DNA of 64,000 bases from Pseudomonadota bacterium (GCA_018668255.1 JABISZ010000099.1:1918-65917); one strand, 5' to 3'; positions 5,032 to 24,577 are shown, numbered from the stretch's first letter. Notes: generated by a model from the sequence alone, not told the origin. Numbers and translations are program-made.

Positions 5032-5098
5032 TAATTAAAAAAGCATGCTAAAAGTTGTAAATTAGTGTTGCTAGAAGCTGATGGTCGTGGCGGTGTTC

Positions 5099-6175: not shown

Positions 6176-6226
6176 ATTGTTATTCCCCTTTATCTAAACA
6201 CTGATAATCAATGTGACCTACAGAGC

Positions 6227-7582: not shown

Positions 7583-8651
7583 TTCCAGACATCTCTAGTT
7601 TTTGTAGTCTTGGCATGACTTCAGTCGCAAAACATTTTAGGTTTCGTTCAGCTTCGCTCCAGGGCATGCCCGCATAACTAAAGATTCCAATGTATGCTTC
7701 AGCCCCGATTCTTCGAGCATTTTTCACAATAGTCTCATAGCACTCGTCTGGAGTACCCCAAGTCTGTAAACCCATGAAAAATTCGATCGCTGCATCCACT
7801 CCAGATTTGTCCATGGCATCGGCGAATTTCCCATAATATTCGTACCCTTTTTGACCTTTTAAATGACCTGTGTCGAAGTTGTAGTGGTCGAGTACTGTCT
7901 GCCAATATCCCCCGATATATTGCTTAGCCATTTTGTAAGCGGCGTCTTTATCTGGGTTACACATAGTCCAACCCGCCATGATAGGGGCGGGAGGCTCTTC
8001 ACCATTTAGACGCACAAAGGCCTCGTTATAGTCAGCGATTTCTTTCTCTACCTGCTCCCATGGTTTTTGAGGGATGACTAGTAGGCCTATTCCGAGTTTC
8101 GCCATAATTTCTACTGATTCGGGTGACACCGCAGCGGCATAAGTGCGGCCCTTAAAGGATTTAAATGGCGCAGGTCGGATAAGTGCTTTAGGTTGATTTA
8201 CGAATTTGCCTTGGTATTCGCAAAAACCGTTTTCTAACCCAGACAGGACACACTCTGCACTTTCTACGAACCTCGGACGAGAATCGGCCATATCTTGACG
8301 AAAAGCATCAAATTCTACTCGCCCGGCCCCTCGTCCTAGGCCCAGGATAGCTCGTCCGTCGGAGATGTTGTCTAGCATAGAAATTTGCTCTGCAACACGC
8401 ATTGGATCATGCCAGGGCAAAACAACCACCATAGTTCCAAGTTTGACTTTTTTTGTGCGACCCGCCATGTAAGTTAAGAATTGAAGAGGATCTGGGCACA
8501 TGGTGTAATCTGTAAAGTGGTGTTCTACGCCCCACACAGACTCAAAGCCTAGAGGTTCTGCCATTTCGGCTAACCGCAACTCGTTGCGGTAAACGCTGCG
8601 ATCATCCAATGAATTAGGGTTCTGGAAAATTGTACTCATGCCAACGTGCAT
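7563..8651 (-). CDS. LLM-class (luciferase-like) flavin-dependent monooxygenase
   Basis: 362 aa. ...LGFESVWGVEHHFTDY..., ...ILGLGRGAGRVEF... LLM/bacterial-luciferase signature. Confidence 0.85.
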   Translation of the reverse strand: MHVGMSTIFQNPNSLDDRSVYRNELRLAEMAEPLGFESVWGVEHHFTDYTMCPDPLQFLTYMAGRTKKVKLGTMVVVLPWHDPMRVAEQISMLDNISDGRAILGLGRGAGRVEFDAFRQDMADSRPRFVESAECVLSGLENGFCEYQGKFVNQPKALIRPAPFKSFKGRTYAAAVSPESVEIMAKLGIGLLVIPQKPWEQVEKEIADYNEAFVRLNGEEPPAPIMAGWTMCNPDKDAAYKMAKQYIGGYWQTVLDHYNFDTGHLKGQKGYEYYGKFADAMDKSGVDAAIEFFMGLQTWGTPDECYETIVKNARRIGAEAYIGIFSYAGMPWSEAERNLKCFATEVMPRLQKLEMSGNVSWAA

Positions 8652-8692
8652 ATTATTGTCCTTATGGGCTTTGTTCTTGAAACTAGTATTTT

Positions 8693-9136
8693 CTATATTG
8701 TTTCTGTTTTCAAGCTGTCTGCAGTTTGTTCGTTATCGAAAAAATTCAACTCAATAGTTAAACCATCAGGGTCCTTCACAAACAATTGAGTTAAATTAAA
8801 ATTCTTCACCTCTTGTATGTGAAAGTCTATTTCAGCTTTTGTCAATCTATCTTCAAATTCTTGAATATTATCCGCTCTAAATGCGATGTGATCGAGTCTC
8901 CCAGTACCATTTTTCAGGTTTGATTTATTTTTGATCTCGTTATCGGGGTAACCTCCTGCAAAGTCCGCTGTCCCCGCATGTACAACTGGGACACCATCTA
9001 AGTAAAACCAGCTTCCAGCGAAGTCAAAATTAGGTCTAGGTCCCAACTCAAGGCCTAAAATATTAGAGTAAAAATCTGCAGTCCTATCTAGGCTTTGAGC
9101 ATAAATAAAATAATGATCGAGTCGTTTAATAGTCAT
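8693..9136 (-). CDS. VOC family protein (glyoxalase/bleomycin-resistance/extradiol dioxygenase fold)
   Basis: Start taken at MTIKRLDHYFIYAQSLDRTADFYSNILGLELG..., preceded by GAGGGGA RBS. Paired beta-alpha-beta-beta-beta modules with the conserved H...E pattern (LDHIAFRADN... E). Confidence 0.7.
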   Translation of the reverse strand: MTIKRLDHYFIYAQSLDRTADFYSNILGLELGPRPNFDFAGSWFYLDGVPVVHAGTADFAGGYPDNEIKNKSNLKNGTGRLDHIAFRADNIQEFEDRLTKAEIDFHIQEVKNFNLTQLFVKDPDGLTIELNFFDNEQTADSLKTETI

Positions 9137-9286
9137 AGTCTGCTCCCCTCGTGGTTCACACAATACTATAAATTAAAGCTCACGACAGTCCTTTCAACTT
9201 TATTGGCACTTGATAAGAGGGTCGCTCATCAGTTATGCTGCAGTGCAATATAATCTATTCAGCAAAATTTATTTTGGAGAGTTAAT

Positions 9287-10531
9287 TTGTTGTACCAATG
9301 GCATGAAGCTATTCGGGCGTCAGCGGCATCAATGAGGTCTTTTTCAGAAATGACAGTCTCCGTATTGAGCGATCCGGCAAACCCTTGGCGGAATGATTAT
9401 CTTGTAAAATCTGCAGCAGTGCTCGCGGATTTTGTCGGAGACTGTACTCTCAGTTACTCCAAACCCCACTGGCACGTGCGTGATGTGTCCGATACGCATG
9501 CGCAAAGCTTTTTCCAAGAAGCAATTATTGACAGTAAAGTATTCTGTAATCTAATCCACTTCTCTCGCTCTAACGAAGAATCTGAAAATAAATTGCCAAA
9601 AATGCTGGTTGTAGCACCGCTATCGGGTCATTTTTCCACTTTACTTCGAGGAACGGTTGAAACGCTTGTACAGAATTTCGATGTCTACATAACAGACTGG
9701 AAGAACGCGCGAGATGTCCCTGCAGATGAAGGAGCGTTTAATCTCGATAACCACCTGGATTACATACGCTATTTTATAGAGCTCTTGGGCGAAAATTTGC
9801 ATATTGTAAGCGTGTGCCAGCCAGGACCTTCCGTGGTGGCCGCAGTGAGTCTCTTGGCCGAGGATAATAGCCCATGTCAGCCTAAAACACTTACTCTTAT
9901 TGGATGTCCAATTGATACTCGCCAAAGCCCTACCGCGCCCAATCGCTTCGCTCAATCTCGCTCGTTATCCTGGTTTGAGAAAAATGCCGTGACGACCCTA
10001 CCTGCCTCTCAAAAAGGAGCATCAAGGATGGTTTATCCGGGCTTTCTCCAGTTAGGAGGTTTCATGGGTATGAACATTGACAAACATATAGCTGCCTATC
10101 GATCGCAATGGGTGAACTTACTTAATGAAGATCTTGAGCCTGTAGCCGCTCATCGAAAGTTTTACGATGAATATTTGTCTGTAATGGACCTTCCTGCAGA
10201 ATACTATCTTGATACAATAAAAAAAGTCTTTCAGGAGCATCATCTTGCCGAGGGGATAATGCTTCACAGGGGTAGGAAAGTCGATCCGTCCTGTATACGG
10301 AAAACTGCTCTTTTGACTATAGAAGGCTGGCATGATGACATCTCAGGTATTGGACAAACTCGGGCTGCGCACGATTTGTGCACTAATCTCCCCGAATGTT
10401 TACATGCCGAATATACCGATCCGGAAGCAGGACACTACGGGTTGTTTCACGGTGAGAGATGGAGACAAGCTATTGCACCTAAAATACTCGATTTTGCTCG
10501 TCAATATTCTGATGCAGGTTGTATGATCTAG
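9287..10531 (+). CDS. phaZ: PHA-depolymerase (PhaZ, intracellular type) family alpha/beta-hydrolase
   Basis: TTG start with GGAGAG RBS. The N-terminus MLYQWHEAIRAS... and internal blocks (APLSGHFSTLLRGTVETL..., YITDWKNARDVPADEGAFNLDNHLDYI, HIVSVCQPGPSVVAAVSLLA, DEYLSVMDLPAEYYLDTIKKVFQEH, DISGIGQTRAAHDLC) closely parallel Ralstonia-type intracellular poly(3-hydroxyalkanoate) depolymerase. Confidence 0.8.
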   Translation: MLYQWHEAIRASAASMRSFSEMTVSVLSDPANPWRNDYLVKSAAVLADFVGDCTLSYSKPHWHVRDVSDTHAQSFFQEAIIDSKVFCNLIHFSRSNEESENKLPKMLVVAPLSGHFSTLLRGTVETLVQNFDVYITDWKNARDVPADEGAFNLDNHLDYIRYFIELLGENLHIVSVCQPGPSVVAAVSLLAEDNSPCQPKTLTLIGCPIDTRQSPTAPNRFAQSRSLSWFEKNAVTTLPASQKGASRMVYPGFLQLGGFMGMNIDKHIAAYRSQWVNLLNEDLEPVAAHRKFYDEYLSVMDLPAEYYLDTIKKVFQEHHLAEGIMLHRGRKVDPSCIRKTALLTIEGWHDDISGIGQTRAAHDLCTNLPECLHAEYTDPEAGHYGLFHGERWRQAIAPKILDFARQYSDAGCMI

Positions 10532-10722
10532 TTTAGCTGCTTGCTGATGTGCCTGCAGGTGATTAATAGGTAGATTGAGCCTCACCGATTATAGTGAAGC
10601 TTCTCCCTTAAATTACTGCGCTATGCACACTAGCTCTCGACGGTGGGGTATTAACTCGCTAACATCTGATTATTCTAGTAAGTAGAATACGCAAAATTTA
10701 AATTAATTTGGGAGGCCTAATC

Positions 10723-11145
10723 ATGGCTTATGATGCATTAGTGGAAAGAAATATATCAACTTCTCGGAGTGAGGTGTTCGCGTCTCTTTACGATTTTGGC
10801 GGGATAAAGAAAATTCTGCCGGACGCAATCGGCTCTTGTGAAAGTATTGGCGAAGGAGTGGGGGCAGTTAGAACTATTGCGCTTGCCGACGGAAGCGGGA
10901 CGGTCGTTGAGCGAATGGACATTGCTCATGATGAGTCAGTTTTTGGGTACTCAATCATTGAAAACGATGCTTTGCCTGTTGAGAATTATGTGGCAATAGT
11001 AACGCTAGCGGACACGAAGGACGGCGGCACTCATATATCATGGGGCAGTAACTGGAGTGCAACAGGCGGCGCTCCTGAAGAGGAAGTGCAGGGAGCATTA
11101 GAAGGTCTGTACGCTGCTATTATTGATGGTATGGCCGCCGCCTAA
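10723..11145 (+). CDS. SRPBCC (Bet v1-like / polyketide cyclase-dehydrase) family protein
   Basis: ATG at 10723 with GGGAGG RBS; ORF-track TTG at 10708 is less likely. About 140-aa SRPBCC-type small ligand-binding protein. Confidence 0.55.
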   Translation: MAYDALVERNISTSRSEVFASLYDFGGIKKILPDAIGSCESIGEGVGAVRTIALADGSGTVVERMDIAHDESVFGYSIIENDALPVENYVAIVTLADTKDGGTHISWGSNWSATGGAPEEEVQGALEGLYAAIIDGMAAA

Positions 11146-11184
11146 TAAGAGTTAGGCGACGCTTATATGGCTCAATTTCGGGGC

Positions 11185-12204
11185 TTATTTGCCCTGGAAT
11201 TGAGGCATTACTTCCTTAGCAAAAAGCTCCAATGCACGAGTTCCCAGACTCGGATCGAGGCCAGGAAACTGGCTGTCCAAAATGAAATCTGTACAGTGGA
11301 AATCTTGAGAAAAACGCTCTATTTTGTCAGCAATTTGATCTGGTGTTCCAATCATGAAGTGCTCAGCCAGAACCGAATCGCGCATGTCTGATGGTTTCTG
11401 AACGGGTAGAGGTGCATCATCGCCCTCAGCATCAGCCGCTTCGGAAAGAATGTCTTGATAAAATTCCAACATGTGAAATAAGTGATCTTGGCATTCAGCC
11501 CACGCCTGGTCTTCAGTCTCTGCACAGTAAACCATTCTTAGTTGCGCAATTTTAAAATCTTCAATGTTCTTGCCTGATTTTTGCAAAGTTTCCAAGTAAA
11601 TCGGTGCCGGATCAGGCCCTAGAGTAGCCATCAGGTGATATCCCATTTCTGCTGCTTTTGTAATCGCTTTTGGTCCGCGTGCGCCTATCCATATTGGGAC
11701 AGGTTCTTGGACTGGCTTCGGAGAGAGGCGCATATCTTTTACTTGAGTGTACTTCCCATCAAACGTGACCTTCTCATCTTTAAATAAACGTTCTATTAGC
11801 TGAATCCCTTCGCGGGTTCTTTGGCCACGCTCACTGCGGTTCATACAAAATGCGTCGAATTCGTAATGGGAATAACCTTGGCCTACCCCTAAGTCAAACC
11901 TCCCATCGGATAAAATATCCACGTTGGCTACTTGTTCTGCCATTAGCACAGGGTGCTGATACGGAAGTATGACTATGAAAGTTCCAATTCTAATAGTGGT
12001 TGTCTTCATCGCAACAGCTGCTGCAGTAGTCATCAATGAAGGGTTATAAGCATCATCTGTGAAATGATGTTCTGTGAGCCAAATGTTGTCGTATCCGGCA
12101 TCTTCACATTTTTGAATTTGTGTCAAAATTTGCTTATAAAAATCAGGAAATGGACGTCTCCATCTAATAGGGTTCCGAAAATCTTGCATAACACCAAAAC
12201 GCAT
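11185..12204 (-). CDS. LLM-class (luciferase-like) flavin-dependent monooxygenase
   Basis: Start MRFGVMQDF... with GAGGAGA RBS. ...AGYDNIWLTEHHFTDDAYNPS..., ...LGVGQGYSHYEF... LLM signature. Confidence 0.85.
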   Translation of the reverse strand: MRFGVMQDFRNPIRWRRPFPDFYKQILTQIQKCEDAGYDNIWLTEHHFTDDAYNPSLMTTAAAVAMKTTTIRIGTFIVILPYQHPVLMAEQVANVDILSDGRFDLGVGQGYSHYEFDAFCMNRSERGQRTREGIQLIERLFKDEKVTFDGKYTQVKDMRLSPKPVQEPVPIWIGARGPKAITKAAEMGYHLMATLGPDPAPIYLETLQKSGKNIEDFKIAQLRMVYCAETEDQAWAECQDHLFHMLEFYQDILSEAADAEGDDAPLPVQKPSDMRDSVLAEHFMIGTPDQIADKIERFSQDFHCTDFILDSQFPGLDPSLGTRALELFAKEVMPQFQGK

Positions 12205-12232
12205 TTGCTTTCTCCTCAATAAGTTTTAAAGA

Positions 12233-13399
12233 CTAAAAGGAGCGAGGTAAGCCTAAGACTTTCTCGCCAATGAAATTAAATATCATCTCTCGGCTAACAG
12301 GAGCTATGCGAGGGATCATCATCTCTCGCAAATAGCGCTCCACATGATATTCTTTCGCATAACCCATACCACCATGCGTCAAAATTGCTTGCTCGCACGC
12401 ACTGTAGCCTGCTTCTGCAGCAAGATATTTAGCTGTATTAGCTTCAGCGCCACATTCTTCCTCCGCATCATATTTTGCAGCAGCAGTAAACGTCATTAGG
12501 TTTGCAGCTTCCAACTCCATCCAGTTCTTGGCGAGTGGATGCTGGATCCCTTGGTTGCTGCCAATCGGCCTACCGAAAACAACCCTTTCTTTAGCATAAT
12601 CTACAGCTCTTTTGAGCGCAGCTCTTCCAAGACCTACTGCTTCTGCAGCGAGTAGAATTCGTTCTGGGTTCAGCCCATGCAAGATGTAACGAAACCCTTT
12701 TCCTTCCTCTCCAATTAAGTCTTCTTGAGGAACAGGCATCCCATCGTAGAAGACAGCATTTGAATCCACGGCTTTTCTTCCCATTTTCTCGATTTCTTGA
12801 ATTTCGACGTAGTCTCGGTTTAGATCTGTGTAAAAAAGAGACAGCCCGTCAGTCTTTTTCTTGACTTCATCTCGTGGGGTAGTCCGCGCTAAAAGAAGAA
12901 CTTTGTTAGCTCTTTGTGCCATAGAAGACCAATGTTTCTGACCATGAATGACATAACCGTCGCCTTCTTTGATCGCACGTACCTGCAGATTAGTCGTGTC
13001 GAGTCCAGCGTTGGGCTCGGTAACGCCAAAGCAGGAAATATCTTTCCCCTGTATCGTCGGTGGAAGCATACGTTGCTTTTGCTCTTCTGTGCCAAAAAGC
13101 AGGACTGGGTTAAGCCCGAACAGACTAAGATGGATCGCAGAGGCCCCTGTAAACCCGGCTCCTGATTGCGCTACGGCTTGCATCATGATCGATGCTTCAG
13201 TAATGCCCATTCCAGCGCCTCCAAACTCTTCGGGCATCGCTATCCCTAGCCATCCTCCTTCACAAATCGCATCGGCGAATTCTTGAGGGTAATTGCCTGT
13301 CTTATCACATTCCAACCAATAGGTGGCGTCGAAATTGGAACAGACTTTAGTAATAGCGTCACGAATAGCTATCTGGTCATCCGAAAATTTATATGTCAT
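12233..13399 (-). CDS. acyl-CoA dehydrogenase
   Basis: Start taken at MTYKFSDDQIAIRDA... (RBS AGGGA). ACAD blocks ...CFGVTEPNAGLD..., YVIHGQKHWSS, C-terminal ...GGMGYAKEYHVERYLRE... Confidence 0.85.
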   Translation of the reverse strand: MTYKFSDDQIAIRDAITKVCSNFDATYWLECDKTGNYPQEFADAICEGGWLGIAMPEEFGGAGMGITEASIMMQAVAQSGAGFTGASAIHLSLFGLNPVLLFGTEEQKQRMLPPTIQGKDISCFGVTEPNAGLDTTNLQVRAIKEGDGYVIHGQKHWSSMAQRANKVLLLARTTPRDEVKKKTDGLSLFYTDLNRDYVEIQEIEKMGRKAVDSNAVFYDGMPVPQEDLIGEEGKGFRYILHGLNPERILLAAEAVGLGRAALKRAVDYAKERVVFGRPIGSNQGIQHPLAKNWMELEAANLMTFTAAAKYDAEEECGAEANTAKYLAAEAGYSACEQAILTHGGMGYAKEYHVERYLREMMIPRIAPVSREMIFNFIGEKVLGLPRSF

Positions 13400-13570
13400 C
13401 TGGTTTCCCTTTGCTCTAGAACCTTCTGAGCTGCAAAGTGAGCAGGTGTGAGGCTTATGAGCTTTTCCAATAGTGTTGGCCAAATACTAGCATTAAAAAT
13501 ATACTTAAGCCGAGTAATATATCCATGCACACAGCATTTCGCTAACGCAAGATTAAAGTGAGTTTAGCCC

Positions 13571-14572
13571 ATGAACCAATATAAACTTCTGGAACAAGAT
13601 GAGTTCCCGCACGAGCCGAGCTCTGAGCAAAATTACAATGAAAGTGTTTACGTAAATAGTTTCGACCTTGCAACAAAAGCAGGGGGCTGGATGAGAATAG
13701 GTAATCGAGCAAATGAACGACATGCGGAAATGCAAGTGTGCATGTATTTGCCTGACGGAAGAATTGCTTGTCAGTTTCAAAAGCCCGCGATTGATGATAA
13801 TAGTGAATTTCGCGCAGGAGGTTTGCATTACCAGGTAACGAAACCTCTTCATCATGTAACTATGGAGTATGGCGGGGAGATTATGTTGTTAGACGATCCT
13901 GATTTATTGCGGGATCCAAAAAAGCTTTTTACTACTGCGCCCCGCGGAATCGCCAAAATCTCCTACGACATGACGGGGATATCTCCAGTTCATGGAGGCG
14001 AGCCGCTCTCATCGAGCCAACAGACAATGTATGGCAGGGACTTTTCTTTGGGCCACTTCAATCAACATATGAAGGTGGTAACTTCTATTGATATAGATAA
14101 CGTGAAAATTAAATTTGCTGGCTTGGGCTGGCGCGATCATTCTTGGGGACCTAGGTATTGGACAAACATCTACTTTTATCGACTGTTCATTGCAAACTTT
14201 GGTGACGGACGCGCAATGATGCTTCTTAAGCTTACGGACAACGATGGAAATGTAAGGGTGGGAGGCGTTCTGCAGTACGATGGTGAGTACGAAGAAATCA
14301 CTGATATGGACGTTACCACTCAGTGGACGAAGGCTAAAGATCCGGCGGCTGTAACCATATCTGTGCAAACCAAGAGACGGTCGGCAATCTTGAATGGTGA
14401 AATTTTAACTTTAGCTCCTTTGAGGAATCGTAGGAAAGTTGACGACCAGTATCTAGAATCACGTGTTGCCGAGGGGCTGACTCATTGGCAATGGGGCGAT
14501 AAAGAAACGTTAGGCATTACTGAGTACATTGAGCTTGTAGAAGACGGCCAGCCAGTTGGATATCCGCTGTGA
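13571..14572 (+). CDS. hypothetical protein (conserved, no domain recognised)
   Basis: 333-aa ORF with good coding appearance, first gene of the + strand cluster with APH and ACAD genes. Confidence 0.55.
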   Translation: MNQYKLLEQDEFPHEPSSEQNYNESVYVNSFDLATKAGGWMRIGNRANERHAEMQVCMYLPDGRIACQFQKPAIDDNSEFRAGGLHYQVTKPLHHVTMEYGGEIMLLDDPDLLRDPKKLFTTAPRGIAKISYDMTGISPVHGGEPLSSSQQTMYGRDFSLGHFNQHMKVVTSIDIDNVKIKFAGLGWRDHSWGPRYWTNIYFYRLFIANFGDGRAMMLLKLTDNDGNVRVGGVLQYDGEYEEITDMDVTTQWTKAKDPAAVTISVQTKRRSAILNGEILTLAPLRNRRKVDDQYLESRVAEGLTHWQWGDKETLGITEYIELVEDGQPVGYPL

Positions 14573-14614
14573 TGCAGGTTGTTTTTTCATAGAAATTAGA
14601 GTGGGTTATTAGTA

Positions 14615-15628
14615 GTGACGATGCAAAACGATGACAACATAGAGTATCTCTCGGAAAAAATTCGAGTCTGTATTAAACGTCGGTTTGGAGATGATTGTGA
14701 GATAGCCGACATTGAATTGGCTACTTTAGGCGGCTCTAATAGAACCGTACTTTTTGATGTAGTTAGAGGAAGCTACCCTTTGCGCCTTGTTCTGAGACAG
14801 GAAACTGTGCCGAGTGAGTATAGCCCGTTCTTGCCATCTGACATGCAGTATCGGGTCTTAGAAGTCGTTTACGAACATGGCATTCCTGTCCCTCGGCCTG
14901 TATTTGAACTAGAACCGGCAGATAACCTTGGCCAAGGATATGTCGTCACTGCTGTGCCTGGAGAGACTTTGCCCAAAAGATTAATAAATTCGGCTGAATA
15001 CGTGACTATGCGTGCGAGATTTCTCCAACAAAGTGCGGAAATTCTGGCCAAGTTGCATACAATCGATCATGTTTTAGTTCCTGGGTTATCTGCATTACAA
15101 GAGAGCAGCGATCCACTGGGGGCTCAAATCGCTCTCTATGACCGCTACGGTGAGCCACACCCCGCAATAGAATTTGCATTCCGTTATCTGGCCAAATATG
15201 AACCAGAACATGGCGCCATAAATTTTCTTCATGGAGATTTCCGTAATGGAAATATGATTGTTGGCACAGAAGGGATCCGTGTTCTTCTCGATTGGGAGTG
15301 CGCTCATACGGGTAGTGTCATGGAAGAAATAGGCTGGTTCTGCGCCCGTTCTTGGAGATTTGGCCGGGTAGATCTTGCAGCGGGTGGTTTTGGTGATAGA
15401 GAGACATTCTATAGAGCTTACGAGAAGGCCAGCGGAAATTTGGTTGATAGAGAGTCATCGCGTTGGTGGGAGATTTTTGGTGTGATGAGATGGGCTATAT
15501 ATAACATTATGCAAAGTCATGGGCACCTATCAGGGGAGAGACGATCACCCGCATTTGCCGCTTGCGGCAGAAACACAGGTATCATCGAGTATGACTTACT
15601 TAAAATCATAGCGAAGGAGTTTGATTGA
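14615..15628 (+). CDS. phosphotransferase family protein (APH/ChoK-like kinase fold)
   Basis: 337 aa. Catalytic ...FLHGDFRNGNMIV... (HGDxxxxN) and ...LLDWECAHTG... (DWE) motifs of aminoglycoside-phosphotransferase-like kinases; these are commonly paired with ACAD genes. Confidence 0.8.
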   Translation: MTMQNDDNIEYLSEKIRVCIKRRFGDDCEIADIELATLGGSNRTVLFDVVRGSYPLRLVLRQETVPSEYSPFLPSDMQYRVLEVVYEHGIPVPRPVFELEPADNLGQGYVVTAVPGETLPKRLINSAEYVTMRARFLQQSAEILAKLHTIDHVLVPGLSALQESSDPLGAQIALYDRYGEPHPAIEFAFRYLAKYEPEHGAINFLHGDFRNGNMIVGTEGIRVLLDWECAHTGSVMEEIGWFCARSWRFGRVDLAAGGFGDRETFYRAYEKASGNLVDRESSRWWEIFGVMRWAIYNIMQSHGHLSGERRSPAFAACGRNTGIIEYDLLKIIAKEFD

Positions 15629-15642
15629 TATGGAGTGCTCGA

Positions 15643-16014
15643 ATGTTTAACGACCCGCCCAACGCATCAGAACTTCTTTTGACAGTTCGCGAATATATAG
15701 AACAGCTCCTTCCTGATCTAGAAAGACAAGATAAATATCACGGCTTGTGTTGCACATATTTGCTCGATGTAGTGATGAGGGAGTTAGAAGAGCCTCCTAA
15801 CATAGGCGATCATAGTAATAACGCTTTGAAAGCTTTATTTAACAATGAAGACGAGCTTTCCGAAACAGAGTTTATGAGTAGTTTGTGTGCGTCTATTCGC
15901 AGAGGCGACCAGGATGGAAACCTTGACCGACTTTTGATTCTCCTCACCAGCCATGTTTCGAAAAAAGTTAGGGTGTCTAACCCTGACTACCTTGATGCAA
16001 AAGATTATCTCTAG
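15643..16014 (+). CDS. small acidic hypothetical protein (DUF6285-like, follows APH-like kinase genes)
   Basis: ATG at 15643 with GGAG 7 nt upstream; ORF-track TTG at 15625 overlaps the kinase stop by 4 nt. No catalytic motif. Confidence 0.5.
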   Translation: MFNDPPNASELLLTVREYIEQLLPDLERQDKYHGLCCTYLLDVVMRELEEPPNIGDHSNNALKALFNNEDELSETEFMSSLCASIRRGDQDGNLDRLLILLTSHVSKKVRVSNPDYLDAKDYL

Positions 16015-16365
16015 TGATACAACGGACCACGTACTTATAGATTAATTACTTCTGTTCAGACTGTATCTTGGTGCAATGCGATTGAAAGGGCGTGTACGAT
16101 ACATTTAGTTTGACTACATCAGATTATGAGACAGAGATCGCTTTAAACTGCAGAAGACCTGCCCTATTACACACCTCTCGGTCGGGCATAATAGCTTTCT
16201 GAGAGGGTTACTTTCTGGTCGCTTATTCAGCTCTCATTCCTCTGTTTGCAAGACAGTGCGTGCTGTGGGTGTGGAGTTATCTTTGGTGGTTTCTTCCAGA
16301 GCAAAAACAAGTAGAATTGTGGACAGCAGAGAAACTTGATAACTAGAGACATTTGGAGAAAGTAA

Positions 16366-17559
16366 ATGGGTGAGGCTAAGAGCGAAGTAACAGGAAACAA
16401 TTTTTGTTTAAGCGTTGACCAGCAAGCGATGTTGGATGAGGCAGACCGGTTTGCTCGAAATGAACTGTATCCTTTAGCTGCTAGGATGGATGACGAGGAA
16501 TGGTGGCCCGAAGATGTCTTCCATGAGATAGGAGCAGCTGGATATTTTGGCCTCACCGTCCCTGAGGAGTACGGAGGACAAGGCCTTGATTTGTTCACCA
16601 GTGGTTTAGTCGCAGAGGCATTTTCTCGCTGGAACTACGCGTTGTCTTTGAGCTGGATTGCTCACGAGAATCTATGTTTAAACAATATATATGCCAACGC
16701 TAATGATTTTCTTCGCTCGAAATATCTACCTGGGTTGTGTTCTGGAGAAAAAATTGGAGCTCTTGGACTTACTGAGCCAGGGGCAGGTTCTGACGCATTG
16801 GGCTCCATGGCGACGACTGCAAAGCTTGAAGGTGACGTTTATATACTCAACGGGCGTAAAATGTATATCACTAATGGCCCAGTTGCGGACACGCTTTTGG
16901 TTTACGCTAAAACCGAGCCTGAAAAAGGTGCGCATGGAATTACTGCATTTATTGTGGAGAAGGACTTTCCCGGGTTTAGCGTTGCACAAAAACTTCACAA
17001 GATGGGATTTAGAGGAAGCCAAACTGGTGAGCTGTTGTTTGATAATTGTGAAGTGCCTGTTGAAAACATCGTAGGGGAAGTTAACAAAGGGGTGGCAGTC
17101 GTTATGAGTGGGTTGGATCTAGAGCGGGCGACTATTGCGCCGATATGTCTCGGTATGGCCCAACGTGCGCTGGAGCTAACCATCGAGTTCGCAAAGACAC
17201 GCGAACAGTTTGGCAAGCCAATCGCAAGTTTTCAGATGATTCAATCGAAGATTGCTGACATGTATGTTTGGGTCGAGACCATCAAAGCCTTGAACTATAA
17301 AGTTCTGGCCGAAGTTAATGATTTAGAGGCTGGACAAGGTGGACGAGGTATGGTCCACGCTAATACTGCAGCATCTATCATGTATGCTGCGAACATGCTC
17401 AATAAAGTACTTGATGAGGCGGTACAAGTACACGGTGGTGCCGGCTATATCTGGGAATCTGAGATCAACCGATTATATAGAGGTAACAAGTTGCTAGAGA
17501 TTGGTGCAGGAACTACAGAGGTCCGGAAAATGATTATTAGTGGCGAGCTTCTAAAATAA
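16366..17559 (+). CDS. acyl-CoA dehydrogenase (short/branched-chain type)
   Basis: 397 aa. ...ALGLTEPGAGSDA..., YILNGRKMYITNG, ...GGAGYIWESEINRLYR... ACAD motifs; RBS GGAGAAAG. Confidence 0.85.
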   Translation: MGEAKSEVTGNNFCLSVDQQAMLDEADRFARNELYPLAARMDDEEWWPEDVFHEIGAAGYFGLTVPEEYGGQGLDLFTSGLVAEAFSRWNYALSLSWIAHENLCLNNIYANANDFLRSKYLPGLCSGEKIGALGLTEPGAGSDALGSMATTAKLEGDVYILNGRKMYITNGPVADTLLVYAKTEPEKGAHGITAFIVEKDFPGFSVAQKLHKMGFRGSQTGELLFDNCEVPVENIVGEVNKGVAVVMSGLDLERATIAPICLGMAQRALELTIEFAKTREQFGKPIASFQMIQSKIADMYVWVETIKALNYKVLAEVNDLEAGQGGRGMVHANTAASIMYAANMLNKVLDEAVQVHGGAGYIWESEINRLYRGNKLLEIGAGTTEVRKMIISGELLK

Positions 17560-17561
17560 AC

Positions 17562-18455
17562 ATGACTAAGCCCGTGACATTTCCCTCGACAAATGAAGAG
17601 TTGATGGTTCATGAAACTGTCTTTGCACCAGGTTTGTTAGACGGGAAAGTAGTTTTCGTGTCTGGCGGCGGTAGTGGAATCGGACGAGCGACGGCATGGT
17701 TGTCAGCTAGATTGGGAGCTACAGTAATTGTTGGGGGCCGTACCGAGGAAAAATTGTTAAAAGTGACGGGTTCTATTAATTCACAAGATGGCTTGAGCGC
17801 TTATTACCAAACACTAGATGTCAGAGACAGGGGGCAGGTGGAAGCTGCGTTCGAAGAAATTTACGGAGTACATGGCGGAATAGACATTTTAGTGAACAGT
17901 GCAGGCGGGCAGTTCCCGCAACCTTCGATTGATTACACTGAAAAAGGTTGGCATTCCGTTATTAACACGAACTTATATGGGACGTGGAACATGATGGATG
18001 TCGCAGCGAAGCGATGGAAACAGGCTGAGGAATCCGGTTCAATCATTAATATCGTCGTTGTCGGTCAAGGCTTGCACGGAGTAGCGCACACAGCTGCTGC
18101 CAGAGCGGGTGTAGTGACTTTTTCAGAGAAAGCGTCTGTTGAATGGGCACCGCTCAATATAAGAGTGAATTGTATAGCGCCTGGCGCAATACGAACTGAA
18201 GGCTGGGAGGTATACCCTGAATCAGCCCGCGCGCTATATCCCAAAACTAATCCTCTGATGAGAGCGGGCTCTCCTTGGGAAATTGCTGAAGCTGTTATTT
18301 TTTTAGCTGGGCCTGGTGGTAAATTTATTAATGGTGAAACTCTTGTTATTGATGGAGGAGGTCAGCATTGGGGGGAAATCTGGACGACTAATAAACCCGA
18401 CTACTATATTGAAGCATCTCGTCTCTGGGATTCAACCGAAGAATCCGACGAATAG
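17562..18455 (+). CDS. SDR family oxidoreductase
   Basis: 297 aa. VVFVSGGGSGIGRATA (TGxxxGIG), NSAGG. Starts 2 nt after the ACAD stop. Confidence 0.8.
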   Translation: MTKPVTFPSTNEELMVHETVFAPGLLDGKVVFVSGGGSGIGRATAWLSARLGATVIVGGRTEEKLLKVTGSINSQDGLSAYYQTLDVRDRGQVEAAFEEIYGVHGGIDILVNSAGGQFPQPSIDYTEKGWHSVINTNLYGTWNMMDVAAKRWKQAEESGSIINIVVVGQGLHGVAHTAAARAGVVTFSEKASVEWAPLNIRVNCIAPGAIRTEGWEVYPESARALYPKTNPLMRAGSPWEIAEAVIFLAGPGGKFINGETLVIDGGGQHWGEIWTTNKPDYYIEASRLWDSTEESDE

Positions 18456-18507
18456 CGCAGAAGATTTAACTTTGTTGCAGCGGAGATAAAAAACCTCGTA
18501 GCTAGCA

Positions 18508-18798
18508 CTAAGGACTTAAATTTTCCTGACTATAGTGGATCATCTTTTGAATAAGGGCTTCGTGGTCTTTGGCGGATAGTTTCTTGAGTGCGCGGATTTT
18601 TTTCGCAAACTCTTTCACATTCGTGTCGTGTCGCTCGAGTAGACCAGTGAGCTCAAGTTGCTCCTTCGAGCCAGGTAGTTTACTTACTTCATCTAGGCCA
18701 GATATAACTATCAGCTTCTCCAAGTGAGAAGCTTTGCTACTAGTCATTTCTAGGAATGAAACCCAGGTGTCTTCGGCTTCTGGTGAGGGGCGATCCAT
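18508..18798 (-). CDS. hypothetical protein
   Basis: 96-aa charged, helix-rich ORF immediately downstream of the RRM-protein gene. No recognisable domain. Confidence 0.4.
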   Translation of the reverse strand: MDRPSPEAEDTWVSFLEMTSSKASHLEKLIVISGLDEVSKLPGSKEQLELTGLLERHDTNVKEFAKKIRALKKLSAKDHEALIQKMIHYSQENLSP

Positions 18799-18831
18799 AG
18801 GTTTCCCGTCGTGATGTGGTTCAAAAATAAC

Positions 18832-19176
18832 TTACGAGAACATCTTCTTTAAAAAGCTTAAAATTCCCGATTTTTCAGGTGCTTTGCTATTTCTTTTACT
18901 ATTGTTTTTCCTGCGAGCTTCGGCGTTTTCTTCAGCAGGCTGTGACTCATCTACTCTTATTTGTCTGCCCTCATAATCTGACCCATCTAGCTCTCCTATA
19001 GCTTCTCTGCCTTCTTCAGCATCAGCCATTTCAACGAAACCATAACCTCTTGATCTCTTTGTGCGTCGGTCGAAGATGATTTCGGCCGCGTTAACTGTTC
19101 CGTATTCCGCGAAAATCTCTTTTAAATCATCGTTTCGGGCTGAATATGGGAGGTTCCCAACGTAAATATTTATCAT
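18832..19176 (-). CDS. RNA-binding protein, single RRM domain
   Basis: MINIYVGNLPYS (RNP-2) and RGYGFVEM (RNP-1) motifs, followed by a basic/acidic tail. Confidence 0.85.
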   Translation of the reverse strand: MINIYVGNLPYSARNDDLKEIFAEYGTVNAAEIIFDRRTKRSRGYGFVEMADAEEGREAIGELDGSDYEGRQIRVDESQPAEENAEARRKNNSKRNSKAPEKSGILSFLKKMFS

Positions 19177-19318: not shown

Positions 19319-20539
19319 CTAGAAAAAGGCTTGAATTCCCGTCTGGGCGCGTCCTAAGATAAGAGCGTGAATATCATGAGTGCCTTCATAGGTGTTTACG
19401 GCCTCAAGATTCAGGAGATGCCTAATAACATGATATTCATCTGAGACCCCGTTTCCCCCGTGCATATCCCGAGAGACTCTTGCAATATCTAGTGCCTTAC
19501 CGCAATTATTCCTCTTTATTAAAGATATTGCCTCAGGCGATCCCTGACCTTGATCAATCATCCTCCCCACGGATAGAGATGCCTGATAACCCAAAGCTAT
19601 TTCTGTTTGCATGTCTGCGAGTTTTTTCTGCACCAATTGGTTGGCCGCTAAAGGTCGGCCGAACTGCTCTCGGTTAAGTGTGTAGTCAAGCGAGGCATGC
19701 CAGCAGAATTCAGCGGCGCCCATTGCCCCCCAGGATATTCCATATCGCGCTCTATTGAGGCAGCCAAAAGGTCCTTTCAAGCCTTTCACGTTAGGCAGAA
19801 GCTGCTCATCGGAAACGAAAACTTCATCCATGACAATCTCGCCGGTTATTGAAGCACGAAGTGAAAATTTACCCTCAATTTTCGGGGCGGACAAACCTGA
19901 CATATCTTTCTCTAGAATAAAGCCTCGAATTATATCGTCTTCAGTTTTTCCCCAAACTACAAACACATCAGCTATTGGGGAATTGGAGATCCACATTTTA
20001 TTTCCGGTCAACACGTATCCGCCGTCAACTTTCTTCGCTCTTGTTCTCATCCCACCCGGGTCAGAGCCATGATCAGGTTCTGTTAGCCCGAAGCATCCTA
20101 CCCATTCTCCCTTAGCTAGCTTCGGCAAATACTTTGTTCTTTGTCTTTCTGATCCATAGGCATAGATGGGGTGCATCACTAAACTGGATTGCACACTCAT
20201 CGCTGAGCGGTAGCCTGAGTCAACTCGCTCTACTTCTCGAGCTATTAAGCCGTAATCTACATAGGATAAGCCGGCACCTCCATACTGTTCTGGAATAGTC
20301 GCTCCGAGGAATCCATGTTCTCCGAATTCGCGCATTATTTCTCTATCAAATGTTTCATGACGATGTGCTTGTAAAACTCTAGGTAGAAGCTTTGATTGGC
20401 AGAAAATGTTGGCGGCTTCGCTTAAGAGTCGTTCTTCTTCAGATAAACGACCTTGCAAACCAAGAGGATCGATCCAGTTGAATTTAGCCTCAGCAGTAGG
20501 AGCGATGTCGCTGTTAACACGTGCAGGGTGGGTTGCCAT
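19319..20539 (-). CDS. gcdH: glutaryl-CoA dehydrogenase
   Basis: 406 aa. Near-identical blocks to characterised GCDH: [77 protein letters not shown]. Confidence 0.9.
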
Positions 20540-20872
20540 TTGAATCCTTTTGAGAAGTGTTTTTATAAATGAATGAGTCCGTTGCTAATATGGTTGATTT
20601 TTATTGTAACATTTTTTTGATTTGAGCTTAGCTTTCAAGTTATGACTTTTTTGCTGTCCTCTTTATTGGTAACATAGCGCAGGCTGTTTTGAATCCAATT
20701 TATTTTGAATGTTTACACGTTTAAACCATATAAAGTTTTGATCGTCTCGGCCAATGACATATTCAAGATTCGTGAGCTAGAAAAACCTCTGTTAGAGATC
20801 TACGGAGATTAAAGTGTCGTATAATCTGTTAACTGGATTAAGACCGGTTTTTCTTTTAATTTGGAGAGTTAC

Positions 20873-21625
20873 ATGAAGATTTTAGTCGCAGTAAAGCGTG
20901 CTATTGATTACAACGTAAAAGCGCGTCCTAAATCAGATGGATCTGGAGTGGAGCTAGCAAACGTCAAAATGTCTATGAATCCTTTTGATGAGATAGCTGT
21001 AGAAGAGGCGATTAGAATTCAAGAGGCTGAGGCGACCACGGAAACAGTAGCAGTTTCTATTGGCGTCAAGCAGTGCCAAGAGACGTTACGAACAGCCATG
21101 GCTATGGGAGTAGACAGAGGGATATTAGTCGAGACTGAGGAAGATGTGCAGCCATTAGCAGTCGCACAAGCTCTGAAAGCTATTGTCGACAAAGAACAGC
21201 CAGACCTGGTCCTGCTGGGGAAACAAGCGATTGATGATGACTCTAATCAGGTAGGACAAATGCTGTCGGCATTATTAGGATGGTCTCAAGGAACATTTGC
21301 ATGTGGTGTTGAACTCAAAGGCAATAGCTTAGTTAGTGTCCGAAGAGAGGTTGATGGAGGAATACAGACTTTGGATCTGAAAATGCCTGCAGTAATAACG
21401 TCCGATCTGCGACTTAATGAGCCCAGGTATGTGAAGTTGCCGAACATAATGAAAGCCAAAAAGAAACAACTCGATACGTTCACTCCCGATGAGCTCGGGG
21501 TAGACCTAGCCTCACGAATCAAGGTGCTTACAGTTTCTGAGCCCCCTGTTAGAGAAGGCGGTGTGAAAGTCGAGGACGTTAATCAATTAATAGATAAACT
21601 TCGAAATCAAGCAAAGGTGATTTGA
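20873..21625 (+). CDS. etfB: electron transfer flavoprotein subunit beta
   Basis: [19 protein letters not shown]... canonical EtfB N-terminus. ATG at 20873 (ORF-track TTG at 20861 possible). Divergent from gcdH. Confidence 0.9.
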
Positions 21626-21626
21626 A

Positions 21627-22562
21627 ATGGCAGTATTGGTATTAGCTGAGCACAATAACGTGGCTCTCGGGGGCTCGACACTTAATGCAGTTAGCGCCGC
21701 TTTGGAAATAGGCGGCGATATTGACATTTTGGTAGCAGGCTTAGACTGTTCTGAGGTTGCTAAAAGCGCTTCTGGAATTAATGGCATACGCAAAGTCATA
21801 TGTGCTGACTCTTCTTGTTACGCACATTCTTTAGCAGAAGATCTAGCCAGTTTGATAGTAAAGATAGCGGGAGATTATGAACATTTTCTGGCCGCAGCAA
21901 CCACAACCGGTAAAAACGTAATGCCTCGAGTCGCAGCATTACTAGATGTGGGGCAAATATCAGACATAATAAGCGTATTATCGCCTGATACATTTACACG
22001 TCCTATTTATGCTGGGAATATAATTGCAACAGTTCAAGCTACAGACGATAAAAAAGTGATCACAGTTCGTACCACCGGTTTTGATGCTGCTAGCGAGACC
22101 GGAGGTACAGCAGTTATAGAGATGATCGAAGCAGCAGCGGAAAGCGGTTTGGCAACGTTTATCTCGGAAGAGTTGACTAAATCTGATCGACCGGAGCTTG
22201 CTGCTGCAAATATTATTGTGTCTGGTGGCCGGGGGATGGGTAGTGGTGAAAACTTCTCAATAATTGAAGCGTTAGCGGATAAATTAGGGGCTGCTGTAGG
22301 TGCATCTAGAGCGGCGGTAGACGCGGGTTATGTTCCTAACGATTACCAAGTGGGTCAGACTGGGAAAGTAGTTGCTCCAGACCTCTATATCGCGATTGGT
22401 ATTTCGGGAGCTATTCAGCACCTAGCGGGTATGAAGGACTCGAAAGTAATTGTTGCTATAAATAAAGATGAAGAGGCGCCAATTTTTGGAGTTGCCGATT
22501 ACGGTTTAGTAGGGGACTTGTTCAAAGAAGTTCCTGCGATGGTCGAGGCTCTCGACGACTAA
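21627..22562 (+). CDS. etfA: electron transfer flavoprotein subunit alpha
   Basis: 311 aa, MAVLVLAEH..., FAD-binding C-terminal domain ...IAIGISGAIQHLAGMKDSKVIVAINKDEEAPIF... Confidence 0.9.
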   Translation: MAVLVLAEHNNVALGGSTLNAVSAALEIGGDIDILVAGLDCSEVAKSASGINGIRKVICADSSCYAHSLAEDLASLIVKIAGDYEHFLAAATTTGKNVMPRVAALLDVGQISDIISVLSPDTFTRPIYAGNIIATVQATDDKKVITVRTTGFDAASETGGTAVIEMIEAAAESGLATFISEELTKSDRPELAAANIIVSGGRGMGSGENFSIIEALADKLGAAVGASRAAVDAGYVPNDYQVGQTGKVVAPDLYIAIGISGAIQHLAGMKDSKVIVAINKDEEAPIFGVADYGLVGDLFKEVPAMVEALDD

Positions 22563-22604
22563 AGCTAAGGATTTTTTTTAAAACTCTAATTTAGAGGCTT
22601 GAAC

Positions 22605-24236
22605 ATGGAAAGAGAATCTATGGAGTTCGATGTGGTGATTGTAGGAGGTGGCCCTTCTGGACTCGCCGCGGCGATTCGCCTAAAGCAACTTGCGGCCGCC
22701 AGCAACTCTGATGTCTCCGTGTGCGTTCTCGAGAAAGCTTCCGAAATAGGAGGGCATATTTTGTCTGGTGCCGTTATTGAGCCAAGAGCACTCGAGGAGC
22801 TCTTCCCTGATTGGAAAGATAGAGGGGCGCCATTAAAAACTCCTGCGGCAGATGACCGTTTTCTACTTTTGTCGGAAAAACGCTCTTTTCGGCTACCGAC
22901 TCCCCCGCAAATGCACAACAAAGGTAATTACATCGCTAGCCTTGGAAATGTTTGTCGATGGCTTGCGGAGCAAGCTGAAGAGCTCGAGGTTGAGGTTTAC
23001 CCAGGCTTTGCCGCAGCCGAAGTTTTATATGATGAGAGTGGAGCGGTGAAAGGGGTCGCAACTGGAGATATGGGACTCACAGCCGATGGAACACAAGGGC
23101 CTAGCTTTGAAAGGGGAATTGAGCTACATGCTCACCAAACAATTTTTGCAGAAGGCTGTAGAGGATCTTTAACTAAAGAAGTCTCTGAACGCTTCGAACT
23201 GCGCGTGGACGCTGAGCCACAAGTTTACGGCATCGGGATAAAAGAGCTCTGGGAAATTGACAGTGCTAATTTTGTGTCAGGGCAAATAACGCATACCGCC
23301 GGTTGGCCTATGAAGTCAGATACCTATGGCGGTTCTTGGATGTATCATTTTGAAGATAATTTAGTATCGATTGGTTTTGTGGTTGGTTTAAATTACTCGA
23401 ATCCTTTTTTAAGCCCTTTTGAAGAAATGCAGAGATTTAAAACCCACCCAGTGATTAGAGACGTGTTGAAAGGTGGGCGCAGAATTTCTTATGGGGCTAG
23501 AGCAATAAGTGCTGGTGGGTTTCAGTCTATTCCCAAGTTAGCATTTCCTGGTGGAATGTTGGTTGGAGATACTGCGGGTTTTCTTAATTTGCCGAAAATC
23601 AAGGGTTCTCATACGGCAATGAAATCGGGAATAACTGCGGCCGAATCGGTTTATTCTTCTCTAGAAGACTGCCGTACTAAAAAGAAAGAAGTTACAGATT
23701 ATGGAAACAATCTAAAAAAAACTTGGTTATGGGAGGAGTTGTATCGCGTCAGAAATATAAAACCTGCGTTCCATTGGGGGTTGTTTCCAGCAATGCTTTA
23801 CTCAGCGGTTGATACTTATCTATTCAGAGGGAAGGCTCCTTGGACTTTCAAGCATCGTCCGGACCACACTAGTTTGAAACTGGCGGCAGACTGCAAACCA
23901 ATCGATTACCCAAAACCTGACGGAGTTTTGACATTTGACAAGCTCTCGTCGGTTTTCCTTTCAAATACTAACCACCAAGAAGGACAGCCAGTTCATTTGA
24001 CCTTAAAGGATTCCACTGTGCCTGCTCGAGTTAATCACCAACTCTATGCAGGACTCGAAGAGAGGTATTGTCCGGCCGGTGTTTATGAGTATGTGCAAGA
24101 CGACGACGGTACTCGACTGCAAATCAACGCGCAAAATTGTGTGCATTGTAAGACTTGTGATATTAAAGACCCTACCCAGAATATTCACTGGGTCACTCCT
24201 GAAGGAGGAGGTGGGCCGAATTACCCCAATATGTAG
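22605..24236 (+). CDS. electron-transfer flavoprotein:ubiquinone oxidoreductase (ETF-QO)
   Basis: MEFDVVIVGGGPSGLAAAIRLKQ (FAD GxGxxG). C-terminal 4Fe-4S ferredoxin-like CPAGVYEY...CVHCKTCDIKDP. Start ATG 22605 with AGAGG RBS (ORF-track TTG at 22599). Confidence 0.9.
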   Translation: MERESMEFDVVIVGGGPSGLAAAIRLKQLAAASNSDVSVCVLEKASEIGGHILSGAVIEPRALEELFPDWKDRGAPLKTPAADDRFLLLSEKRSFRLPTPPQMHNKGNYIASLGNVCRWLAEQAEELEVEVYPGFAAAEVLYDESGAVKGVATGDMGLTADGTQGPSFERGIELHAHQTIFAEGCRGSLTKEVSERFELRVDAEPQVYGIGIKELWEIDSANFVSGQITHTAGWPMKSDTYGGSWMYHFEDNLVSIGFVVGLNYSNPFLSPFEEMQRFKTHPVIRDVLKGGRRISYGARAISAGGFQSIPKLAFPGGMLVGDTAGFLNLPKIKGSHTAMKSGITAAESVYSSLEDCRTKKKEVTDYGNNLKKTWLWEELYRVRNIKPAFHWGLFPAMLYSAVDTYLFRGKAPWTFKHRPDHTSLKLAADCKPIDYPKPDGVLTFDKLSSVFLSNTNHQEGQPVHLTLKDSTVPARVNHQLYAGLEERYCPAGVYEYVQDDDGTRLQINAQNCVHCKTCDIKDPTQNIHWVTPEGGGGPNYPNM

Positions 24237-24244
24237 GATGTATA

Positions 24245-24568: not shown

Positions 24569-24577
24569 TAAGCTTTC

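Follow-up and report, generated by a model that had tools for sequence, protein, structure and literature searches.

Within a stretch of 64,000 nucleotides (nt) from a Pseudomonadota bacterium (GCA_018668255.1, JABISZ010000099.1:1918-65917; hereafter the window, to which coordinates refer), we analysed a group of plus-strand genes that begins with a protein of 333 amino acids (aa) matched by the Pfam families DUF7065 and DUF7064 (13571-14572), followed by an APH-fold kinase of 337 aa (14615-15628; Pfam APH, E 8.5e-26) and a small DUF6285 protein (15643-16014; Pfam, 47 bits with a cutoff of 28). After a non-coding gap of 351 nt (16015-16365), these genes are followed on the same strand by a full three-domain acyl-CoA dehydrogenase (ACAD) of 397 aa that resembles isovaleryl-CoA dehydrogenase (IVD; 16366-17559, Pfam) and by an atypical short-chain dehydrogenase/reductase (SDR) of 297 aa (17562-18455, Pfam), the start of which lies 2 nt past the ACAD stop. 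A further ACAD of 388 aa, CaiA/AcrC-like by Pfam and NCBIfam, is encoded divergently (12233-13399, minus strand). A preliminary description of this locus had read the kinase and the downstream ACAD as a split counterpart of the animal ACAD10/ACAD11 enzymes: all open reading frames (ORFs) that it assigned to this module are present, the divergent ACAD as a complete three-domain enzyme, and the order of kinase, DUF6285-like protein and ACAD stands, with the ACAD nevertheless set off from the DUF6285 gene by the non-coding gap. The overlap of the kinase stop with the DUF6285 start holds only if translation begins at a TTG (15625; 129 aa), whilst homologues first align at the ATG at 15643; with this start, preceded by a GGAG at a distance of 8 nt, the protein has 123 aa (122 aa in relatives) and comes after a gap of 14 nt. 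Promoter and terminator scans of 13300-18900 gave nothing above shuffled expectation.

The 333-aa protein had been described as unannotated, although Pfam assigns both DUF7065 and DUF7064 to it. Its AlphaFold (AF2) model has a predicted local distance difference test (pLDDT) score of 93.9 and a predicted template modelling (pTM) score of 0.91, and in a Foldseek search of the PDB ranks 1-5 were all occupied by chains of 25-phosphosteroid lyase (25-PSL; E 7e-12 to 2e-10, TM-score 0.59-0.66), and ranks 6-27 by further proteins of the AttH-like double beta-barrel fold, namely decalin-forming pericyclases, AttH and kievitone hydratase (E 3e-7 or weaker). In anaerobic cholesterol degradation, 25-PSL strips the phosphate that 25-hydroxysteroid kinase (25-HSK) puts on a tertiary alcohol (PMC7411048, PMC8449060, PMC11061730); the 25-PSL gene was still unidentified in 2021 (PMC8449060), the structures (9fzn, 9g2i and 9g4c) were released in January 2026, and our literature search found no paper on them. 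At the level of sequence, 25-PSL was the sole match of the 333-aa family profile among PDB sequences, and a weak one (E ~0.2, 13% identity), within which the motifs H..(T/S)..N(F/Y)..(D/E)..Y.N and G.RD.SWG.R line up between the two; a 41-aa fragment of 25-PSL bearing the RDxSWG motif in turn matches Pfam DUF7065 with an E value of 0.005.

The invariant motifs of the 333-aa protein are NYNESVYVN (13631-13657), GRDFSLGHFNQH (14033-14068), GWRDHSWGPRYW (14126-14161, including D189) and GITEYIE (14513-14533). Comparison of the 25-PSL product complex (9g4c, with phosphate and desmost-1,4-diene-3-one) with the wild type (9fzn) reveals an Asp to Asn replacement in SRDRSWG, and the replaced Asp aligns with D189 of GWRDHSWGPR in the window protein. 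Judging from this difference between 9fzn and 9g4c, the Asp of RDxSWG would be catalytic in 25-PSL; D189 is invariant in 30 family members and is also present in bacterial, plasmid and eukaryotic fusion homologues. Taken on its predicted structure, the 333-aa protein thus appears to be a remote homologue of 25-PSL and a predicted phosphoester (C-O) lyase, and the likelier phosphate eliminase of the locus.

In case of the kinase, the motifs HGDFRNGN (aa 206-213; 15230-15253) and DWE, the latter within LDWECAH (aa 225-231; 15287-15307), were confirmed and are invariant across 29 homologues. Reference sequences for LvaA, LvaB and LvaC were taken from the lva operon of the P. aeruginosa plasmid p12939-PER, as annotated by the Prokaryotic Genome Annotation Pipeline (PGAP). 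LvaA and the window kinase share 33% identity (E 4e-47), and the AF2 model of the latter (pLDDT 89.2) retrieved 25-HSK (9fsg/9ft5; E 5e-15, TM-score 0.77) as top Foldseek match, the next nearest solved structures being 3dxp, Rv3168 and the kinase domain of ACAD11 (E 1.7e-15 by profile for the last of these); antibiotic kinases, among them those for macrolides and aminoglycosides, came far behind, with E values no better than 4e-10 by fold and 5e-8 by profile. That the kinase is no aminoglycoside or homoserine kinase, as the preliminary description had supposed, is borne out by these comparisons, in which LvaA is nearest by sequence and the kinases for antibiotics and homoserine lie far away. 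Since the nearest relatives are LvaA, 25-HSK and the ACAD11 kinase domain rather than antibiotic kinases, a logic of phosphorylation followed by elimination is reasonable. A rough neighbour-joining tree (161 shared columns) resolved three groups of kinases, each split with 100% bootstrap: 25-HSK with Rv3168; 3dxp with ACAD11 and 9o56; and the DUF6285-partnered kinases, comprising LvaA, the Thermus, Variovorax and Sulfitobacter kinases and the window family. The last group has in common a C-terminal extension (15542-15601; RSPAFAACGRNTxxIEYDLL in the window) that was not seen in the aligned regions of stand-alone kinases, and by sequence and tree the window kinase is a member of this LvaA-like, DUF6285-partnered clade.

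The protein that PGAP annotates in p12939-PER as "4-hydroxypentanoyl-CoA kinase subunit LvaB" reaches 85 bits with Pfam DUF6285 and is 28% identical to the window DUF6285 protein over 115 aa, which makes the latter probably an LvaB-like accessory kinase subunit. NCBIfam is uninformative as a test of this assignment, since no model there matches even the annotated LvaB. According to Rand et al. (2017), as reported in PMC6692424, LvaB is a protein of 12 kDa that co-purifies with LvaA, both being needed for the conversion of 4-hydroxyvaleryl-CoA to 4-phosphovaleryl-CoA. Of the two proteins previously listed as functionally unassigned, the smaller one thus belongs to the LvaB subunit family, and the larger one is the homologue of 25-PSL. 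The lvaABCDE operon, which the preliminary description did not consider, is a closer bacterial precedent than ACAD10/11.

Gene linkage was analysed over 80 species-level loci from public genomes with a kinase identity of at least 48%, the denominators varying by feature. DUF6285 lies directly after the kinase in 76 of 77 loci, and a lyase gene (we use this term for DUF7065/DUF7064 genes, after their predicted function) is found within 8 kb of the kinase in 67 of 71, in at least 53 of them directly upstream. Two copies of the lyase gene stand in tandem in 22 of the 71 loci (such as L003:4960-6987, L014, L017 and L020), one copy being ~60-65% and the other ~51-56% identical to the single copy of the window. 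An IVD-like ACAD occurs within 4.5 kb of the kinase in 27 of 56 loci, in two different arrangements. The conserved unit is the set of three genes at 13571-16014, kept together in about 94-99% of these genomes, and the ACAD is optional. Kinase and lyase genes are still linked in Variovorax, Cupriavidus and Embleya, where identity is down to 30-37%, the Variovorax cluster also holding two CoA ligases, enoyl-CoA hydratases (ECHs), a MaoC hydratase and a thiolase with an OB-fold protein. On a plasmid of Sulfitobacter alexandrii (L091:3631-8999), an operon combines genes for a TRAP transporter, for an APH kinase, for a protein of 157 aa without a Pfam match, for a CoA ligase and for an ACAD with that of a homologue of the lyase (53% identity).

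An exhaustive profile search for the DUF7065/DUF7064 family returned 1,709 representatives at 50% clustering, among which at least 14 distinct proteins of 611-824 aa combine an N-terminal APH kinase with a C-terminal DUF7065/DUF7064 region (P0288, P0298, P0307, P0363, P0341 and P0391-P0399; loci L093:7001-9217 and L094:5999-8239). The sources of these fusions include the chytrid Zopfochytrium polystomum (1), eukaryotic transcriptomes, EukProt (2) and eukaryote-like contigs (2). The kinase domains of the fusions share 38-45% identity with 3dxp and with the corresponding domain of ACAD11, and by similarity they stand immediately ahead of animal ACAD10/11 and plant IBR3; the lyase domains keep RDHSWGPR. 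Fusions with CoA-ligase, crotonase and thioesterase domains exist for the kinase clade and for the lyase, P0333 being a fusion of AMP-binding_C with the lyase; genes of the 4HBT thioesterase and PhyH families neighbour P0298. As a kinase of the ACAD10/11 type is fused to the lyase in these proteins and to an ACAD in ACAD10/11, the ACAD and lyase domains would handle the same kind of intermediate: this exchange of fusion partners is the strongest available argument for that reading.

A further pair may exist in M. tuberculosis, where Rv3168 (PDB 3ATS/3ATT) clusters with 25-HSK and the NCBIfam family for Rv3169 weakly matches the window lyase (E 4.5e-6). Rv3168 has long been filed as a putative aminoglycoside kinase or resistance gene; with Rv3169 it probably makes up another pair of kinase and lyase. 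Both genes belong to one operon, which the TetR regulator Rv3167c represses (PMC5340868).

In order to place the ACADs of the window, we compared them with the phosphate-eliminating ACAD clade, in which a catalytic Asp takes the place of Glu and an HCMR motif together with an upstream Arg holds the 4-phosphate (PMC12440821, PMC11342911). In mouse ACAD11 the phosphate is bound by R626, H634 and R637, with D753 as the catalytic Asp (PMC12440821), and bacterial LvaC is 56-62% identical to the ACAD domains of animal ACAD10/11 (PMC11342911). Genuine LvaC/ACAD10/11 members share 50-62% identity, and LvaC and its Thermus homologue (50% identical) carry VRLAPARLTHCMRWLG and RIYDGP. The downstream ACAD (16366-17559) reads SGLDLERATIAPICLG in the HCMR region and EIGAGT at the Asp position, with an Ala there, and is 28% identical to LvaC. 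The HCMR motif is absent from the two other ACADs, with RIAPVS (Pro) at the Asp position of the upstream enzyme (12233-13399; 30% to LvaC) and NTYEGT (Glu) in a third ACAD on the minus strand (19319-20539; 24% to LvaC). HCMR is found in no real ORF of the window, and among the ACADs of 85 related loci none exceeds 38% identity to LvaC.

The best PDB matches of the downstream ACAD are instead IVDs, aligned over the full length (E 1.6e-100 to 2e-89; human 1ivh, bacterial 4o5m and 4kto), and its first 60 matches there do not include ACAD11. E253 (LDLER, 17113-17127) aligns with E254 of human IVD, the helix G Glu that serves as the catalytic base, and EIGAGT (17497-17514) aligns with EIGAGT of IVD, with Gly/Ala at the position of E376 in medium-chain acyl-CoA dehydrogenase. 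On these matches and residues, the downstream ACAD is a conventional IVD-type dehydrogenase and not an eliminase of the LvaC/ACAD10/11 type; it differs from the IVDs in context, in that it does not belong to a liu cluster for leucine catabolism but adjoins an SDR resembling 2,4-dienoyl-CoA reductase. The ACAD that the preliminary description had assigned to the ACAD10/11 type thus groups with the ordinary dehydrogenases that it had itself set against that proposal: of the proposed split module, the kinase half is supported and the logic of phosphorylation and elimination is reasonable, whilst the ACAD half falls away.

The best NCBIfam match of the SDR (17562-18455) is PRK07677, 2,4-dienoyl-CoA reductase, with 177 bits and thus below the cutoff of 318. 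The protein is without YxxxK, has HTAAARAG, conserved in orthologues, and is not LvaD-like; the absence of YxxxK is consistent with the 2,4-dienoyl-CoA reductase class without being diagnostic of it. In related loci the SDR co-occurs with the ACAD. The gap at 16015-16365 corresponds to the position of a PaaG-like enoyl-CoA hydratase/isomerase gene in 26 of 56 related loci, and neither tblastn nor blastn detected a remnant of such an ECH there. Because the same layout without the ECH recurs in the metagenome-assembled loci L006 and L007 (97-99% identical) and in L016 and L066, it is a true feature of the lineage and not an assembly error. The crotonase of the window (46116) was considered as a relocated copy and was ruled out, given only 24% identity to the ECH of the relatives. 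This crotonase, together with a CoA ligase (55928) and a thiolase (57678), had been invoked as part of the same pathway: all three are genuine members of their families, yet they lie 28-40 kb away and adjoin the module in no related locus.

Taken together, we consider it moderately probable that the three-gene set at 13571-16014 encodes an ATP-dependent dehydratase acting via a phosphoester, most likely on a hydroxyacyl-CoA, in which the DUF7065/DUF7064 lyase eliminates the phosphate. This reading builds on the homologies, the gene linkage, the fusions and the residue patterns of ACAD and SDR described above. The kinase and its LvaB-like DUF6285 subunit would phosphorylate a hydroxyl group that is refractory to the ordinary chemistry of beta-oxidation, and by analogy with LvaAB the substrate would most likely be a hydroxyacyl-CoA (PMC6692424, PMC12440821). 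The double beta-barrel enzyme would then eliminate the phosphate to leave a C=C double bond without the use of flavin adenine dinucleotide (FAD), probably by carbocation-type chemistry, as expected for the fold. The resulting unsaturated acyl-CoA would presumably be processed next, by the co-transcribed IVD-type ACAD and the dienoyl-CoA-reductase-like SDR, with a PaaG-like isomerase/hydratase added in many relatives. An ACAD, a dienoyl-CoA reductase and an isomerase together resemble the classic auxiliary enzymes for a double bond elsewhere than at C2, and in textbooks they deal with double bonds at even positions; the set found here would fit a non-conjugated enoyl-CoA leaving the lyase. That the substrate would be an acyl-CoA is argued by the LvaAB precedent, by the ECH, ACAD and SDR neighbours, by the S. 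alexandrii operon and the Variovorax cluster, and by the fusions with domains of CoA enzymes.

The locus can be set beside three known systems. With the lva operon for levulinate in Pseudomonas it shares an APH kinase followed by a DUF6285 protein, the C-terminal kinase extension, an ACAD and an SDR downstream, and the logic of phosphorylating a non-activated hydroxyl on an acyl chain. The lva operon, however, has an LvaC-type ACAD with catalytic Asp and HCMR that the window lacks, and a keto-reductase, LvaD, where the window SDR is dienoyl-CoA-reductase-like; the window is without an adjoining LvaE ligase, LvaR regulator or transporter, and has a DUF7065/DUF7064 gene that lva lacks. With 25-HSK and 25-PSL of Sterolibacterium denitrificans, the best structural matches of the kinase (TM-score 0.77) and the 333-aa protein (TM-score 0.66), it shares ATP-dependent dehydration via a phosphoester by two separate enzymes, as predicted here, and the retention of RDxSWGxR. 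Differences lie in the identity of only 13-21%, in the clade of the window kinase and in the substrate, which in Sterolibacterium is the tertiary alcohol of a steroid and not a CoA thioester; moreover, 25-HSK has no DUF6285 partner and its gene is not beside the lyase gene (PMC8449060). ACAD10/ACAD11 and plant IBR3 share a kinase of the same broad APH subgroup and the strategy of phosphorylating and then eliminating, but the window kinase belongs to a sister clade (~23% identity on the core), the window ACADs fall outside the ACAD10/11 clade and the predicted eliminase is a beta-barrel protein without flavin. The eukaryotic fusion of an ACAD10/11-type kinase to DUF7065/DUF7064 is a closer parallel than ACAD10/11 itself.

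Several observations weigh against the kinase-lyase dehydratase acting on an acyl-CoA. The link to 25-PSL is remote (13% identity, profile E ~0.2, TM-score ~0.65), and as the same fold includes hydratases and pericyclases, the lyase activity is putative. The window kinase family has an invariant Gln (Q78, ~14846-14848) where LvaA, 3dxp and ACAD11 have the alphaC Glu, and a Gln is also present at this position in 25-HSK and Rv3168. As to the binding of CoA, R86 and R176, which contact it in ACAD11, fall in a gapped, number-offset part of the alignment with the window kinase. In 18 of 56 loci the context consists of SDR, Zn-alcohol dehydrogenase and SGL-lactonase genes, with no CoA-related gene within 8 kb, and four related loci have the kinase and DUF6285 with no lyase in view. 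The S. alexandrii operon, finally, holds the lyase together with an ACAD that has LvaC-type features (HHCMR, RIGDGP), and the lyase is therefore not a simple replacement for LvaC. Strict alternation of the lyase with an LvaC-type ACAD was ruled out, for S. alexandrii has both and a plasmid of S. pontiacus neither, the latter carrying a kinase-DUF6285 pair alone of these components.

Under the proposal with which the locus was first described, the module is a split ACAD10/11 or LvaABC system: a 4-hydroxyacyl-CoA would receive a phosphate from the kinase and lose it again through the adjacent ACAD. This proposal draws on the homology of kinase and DUF6285 to LvaA and LvaB, on a gene order of kinase, small protein, ACAD and SDR that mimics lvaA-B-C-D, and on the IVD-like ACADs near the kinase in almost half of the loci, in two arrangements. 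It is nonetheless very improbable, as the window ACAD is of the IVD type (E253) with Ala at the Asp position and none of R626, H634 and R637, its 28% identity to LvaC is matched by the low values throughout the related loci, the SDR without YxxxK is unlike LvaD, and the ACAD is missing from about half of the loci, the lyase being nearly always there. Alternatively, kinase and lyase might dehydrate a free alcohol that is not a CoA ester, tertiary or unreactive for another reason, such as a terpenoid, a sterol side chain or a lactone-derived hydroxy compound, with ACAD and SDR present by synteny only. Steroid enzymes are the top structural matches of both proteins, the Q78 alphaC residue is common to 25-HSK and Rv3168, the Porticoccaceae-type context contains only SDRs, Zn-alcohol dehydrogenases, lactonase and luciferase-like monooxygenases, and the window is rich in the last of these. 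We still regard this as unlikely: by sequence and tree the kinase sits with the LvaA types and not with 25-HSK, DUF6285 has to our knowledge so far been known only as the subunit of an acyl-CoA kinase, the distant homologues have CoA ligases, ECHs, ACADs and a thiolase around them, and the fusion kinases belong to the clade of 4-hydroxyacyl-CoA kinases.

The 333-aa protein might also belong with the hydratases, isomerases or cyclases of the AttH/CrtC/kievitone-hydratase fold and act on an alkene without involvement of phosphate. The kinase and its subunit would then serve another purpose, such as the formation of a different phosphorylated intermediate for a phosphatase or some other enzyme. 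The breadth of the fold at Foldseek ranks 6-27 would allow for this, in the clusters of Thermus and P. citronellolis a histidine phosphatase accompanies the LvaA-type kinase (PMC6692424), and S. alexandrii has an LvaC-type ACAD beside the lyase homologue. Yet 25-PSL outscores the hydratases (E 7e-12 compared to 3e-7 or weaker) and is the sole match at the level of sequence, and the near-obligatory adjacency to the kinase and the repeated fusions would be difficult to account for if the two proteins had no intermediate in common, so that this possibility appears improbable. In Thermus thermophilus HB8 (plasmid pTT27, L088:3844-6971), an LvaC-type ACAD (50% to LvaC), the kinase, DUF6285 and the histidine phosphatase stand in a row; the layout is similar to the lva variant of P. 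citronellolis, in which a phosphatase takes the place of LvaB (PMC6692424).

The wider surroundings of the module are unusually dense in luciferase-like monooxygenase genes (5099-6175, 7563-8651, 11185-12219 and 25937-26965). The gene at 11185-12219 (minus strand, 344 aa, Pfam) is the upstream neighbour beyond the divergent ACAD and is 63-79% identical in relatives; that its product supplies the hydroxyl group is a speculative possibility. The same region encodes an EthD protein (4363-5031), a DUF1329/LolA-like protein (6227-7582), a VOC/glyoxalase protein (8693-9163), a PhaZ-type polyhydroxyalkanoate depolymerase (9287-10531) and an SRPBCC protein (10708-11145), and the order of the genes from 4363 to 12219 is largely kept in relatives. 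The divergent ACAD (12233-13399) is a conserved upstream neighbour in the acyl-CoA-type context. Downstream, an RRM_1 RNA-binding protein (18832-19176, minus strand) and the ACAD with a Glu base (19319-20539, minus strand) are neighbours kept in many relatives, and 20861-25822 encodes the beta and alpha subunits of electron transfer flavoprotein (ETF), the ETF-quinone oxidoreductase (ETF-QO), a 2Fe-2S ferredoxin and a ferredoxin reductase.

Removal of a hydroxyl group away from an activating carbonyl is chemically difficult, and we know of only two phosphoester-based solutions that have been described, both recent: LvaABC and ACAD10/11 for 4-hydroxyacyl-CoAs, and 25-HSK/25-PSL for sterol side chains. 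The window locus joins the kinase pair of the former with the lyase type of the latter. As a kind of system, ATP-dependent dehydration via a phosphoester is thus already known; the combination seen here appears to be new. Our literature search found no mention of DUF6285, DUF7064 or DUF7065, nor any description of a module of LvaAB-type kinase and 25-PSL-type lyase or of a eukaryotic kinase-lyase fusion. Tentatively, and with less assurance than for the module itself, we suggest that DUF7065/DUF7064 could be a widespread and hitherto unrecognised family of flavin-independent phosphoester lyases that is paired with APH-type kinases for the general ATP-dependent dehydration of alcohols, a second solution that does without an ACAD, and that the window module may feed hydroxylated acyl-CoAs into beta-oxidation in abundant marine Gammaproteobacteria. 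The kinase partners would then be LvaAB-like in bacteria and of the ACAD10/11 type in the eukaryotic fusions, with Rv3168-Rv3169 as the counterpart in M. tuberculosis, and the substrates in the window might be branched or lactone-derived acyl-CoAs. If correct, this would provide working functional hypotheses for DUF6285, DUF7064 and DUF7065 (~1,700 representatives at 50% clustering), reveal a previously unnoticed bifunctional enzyme of eukaryotes that unites an ACAD10/11-type kinase with a lyase, and give the Rv3168-Rv3169 operon a testable function. For uncultured marine Gammaproteobacteria, including the Porticoccaceae, it would point to the catabolism of hydroxy acids, lactones or branched or isoprenoid acids.

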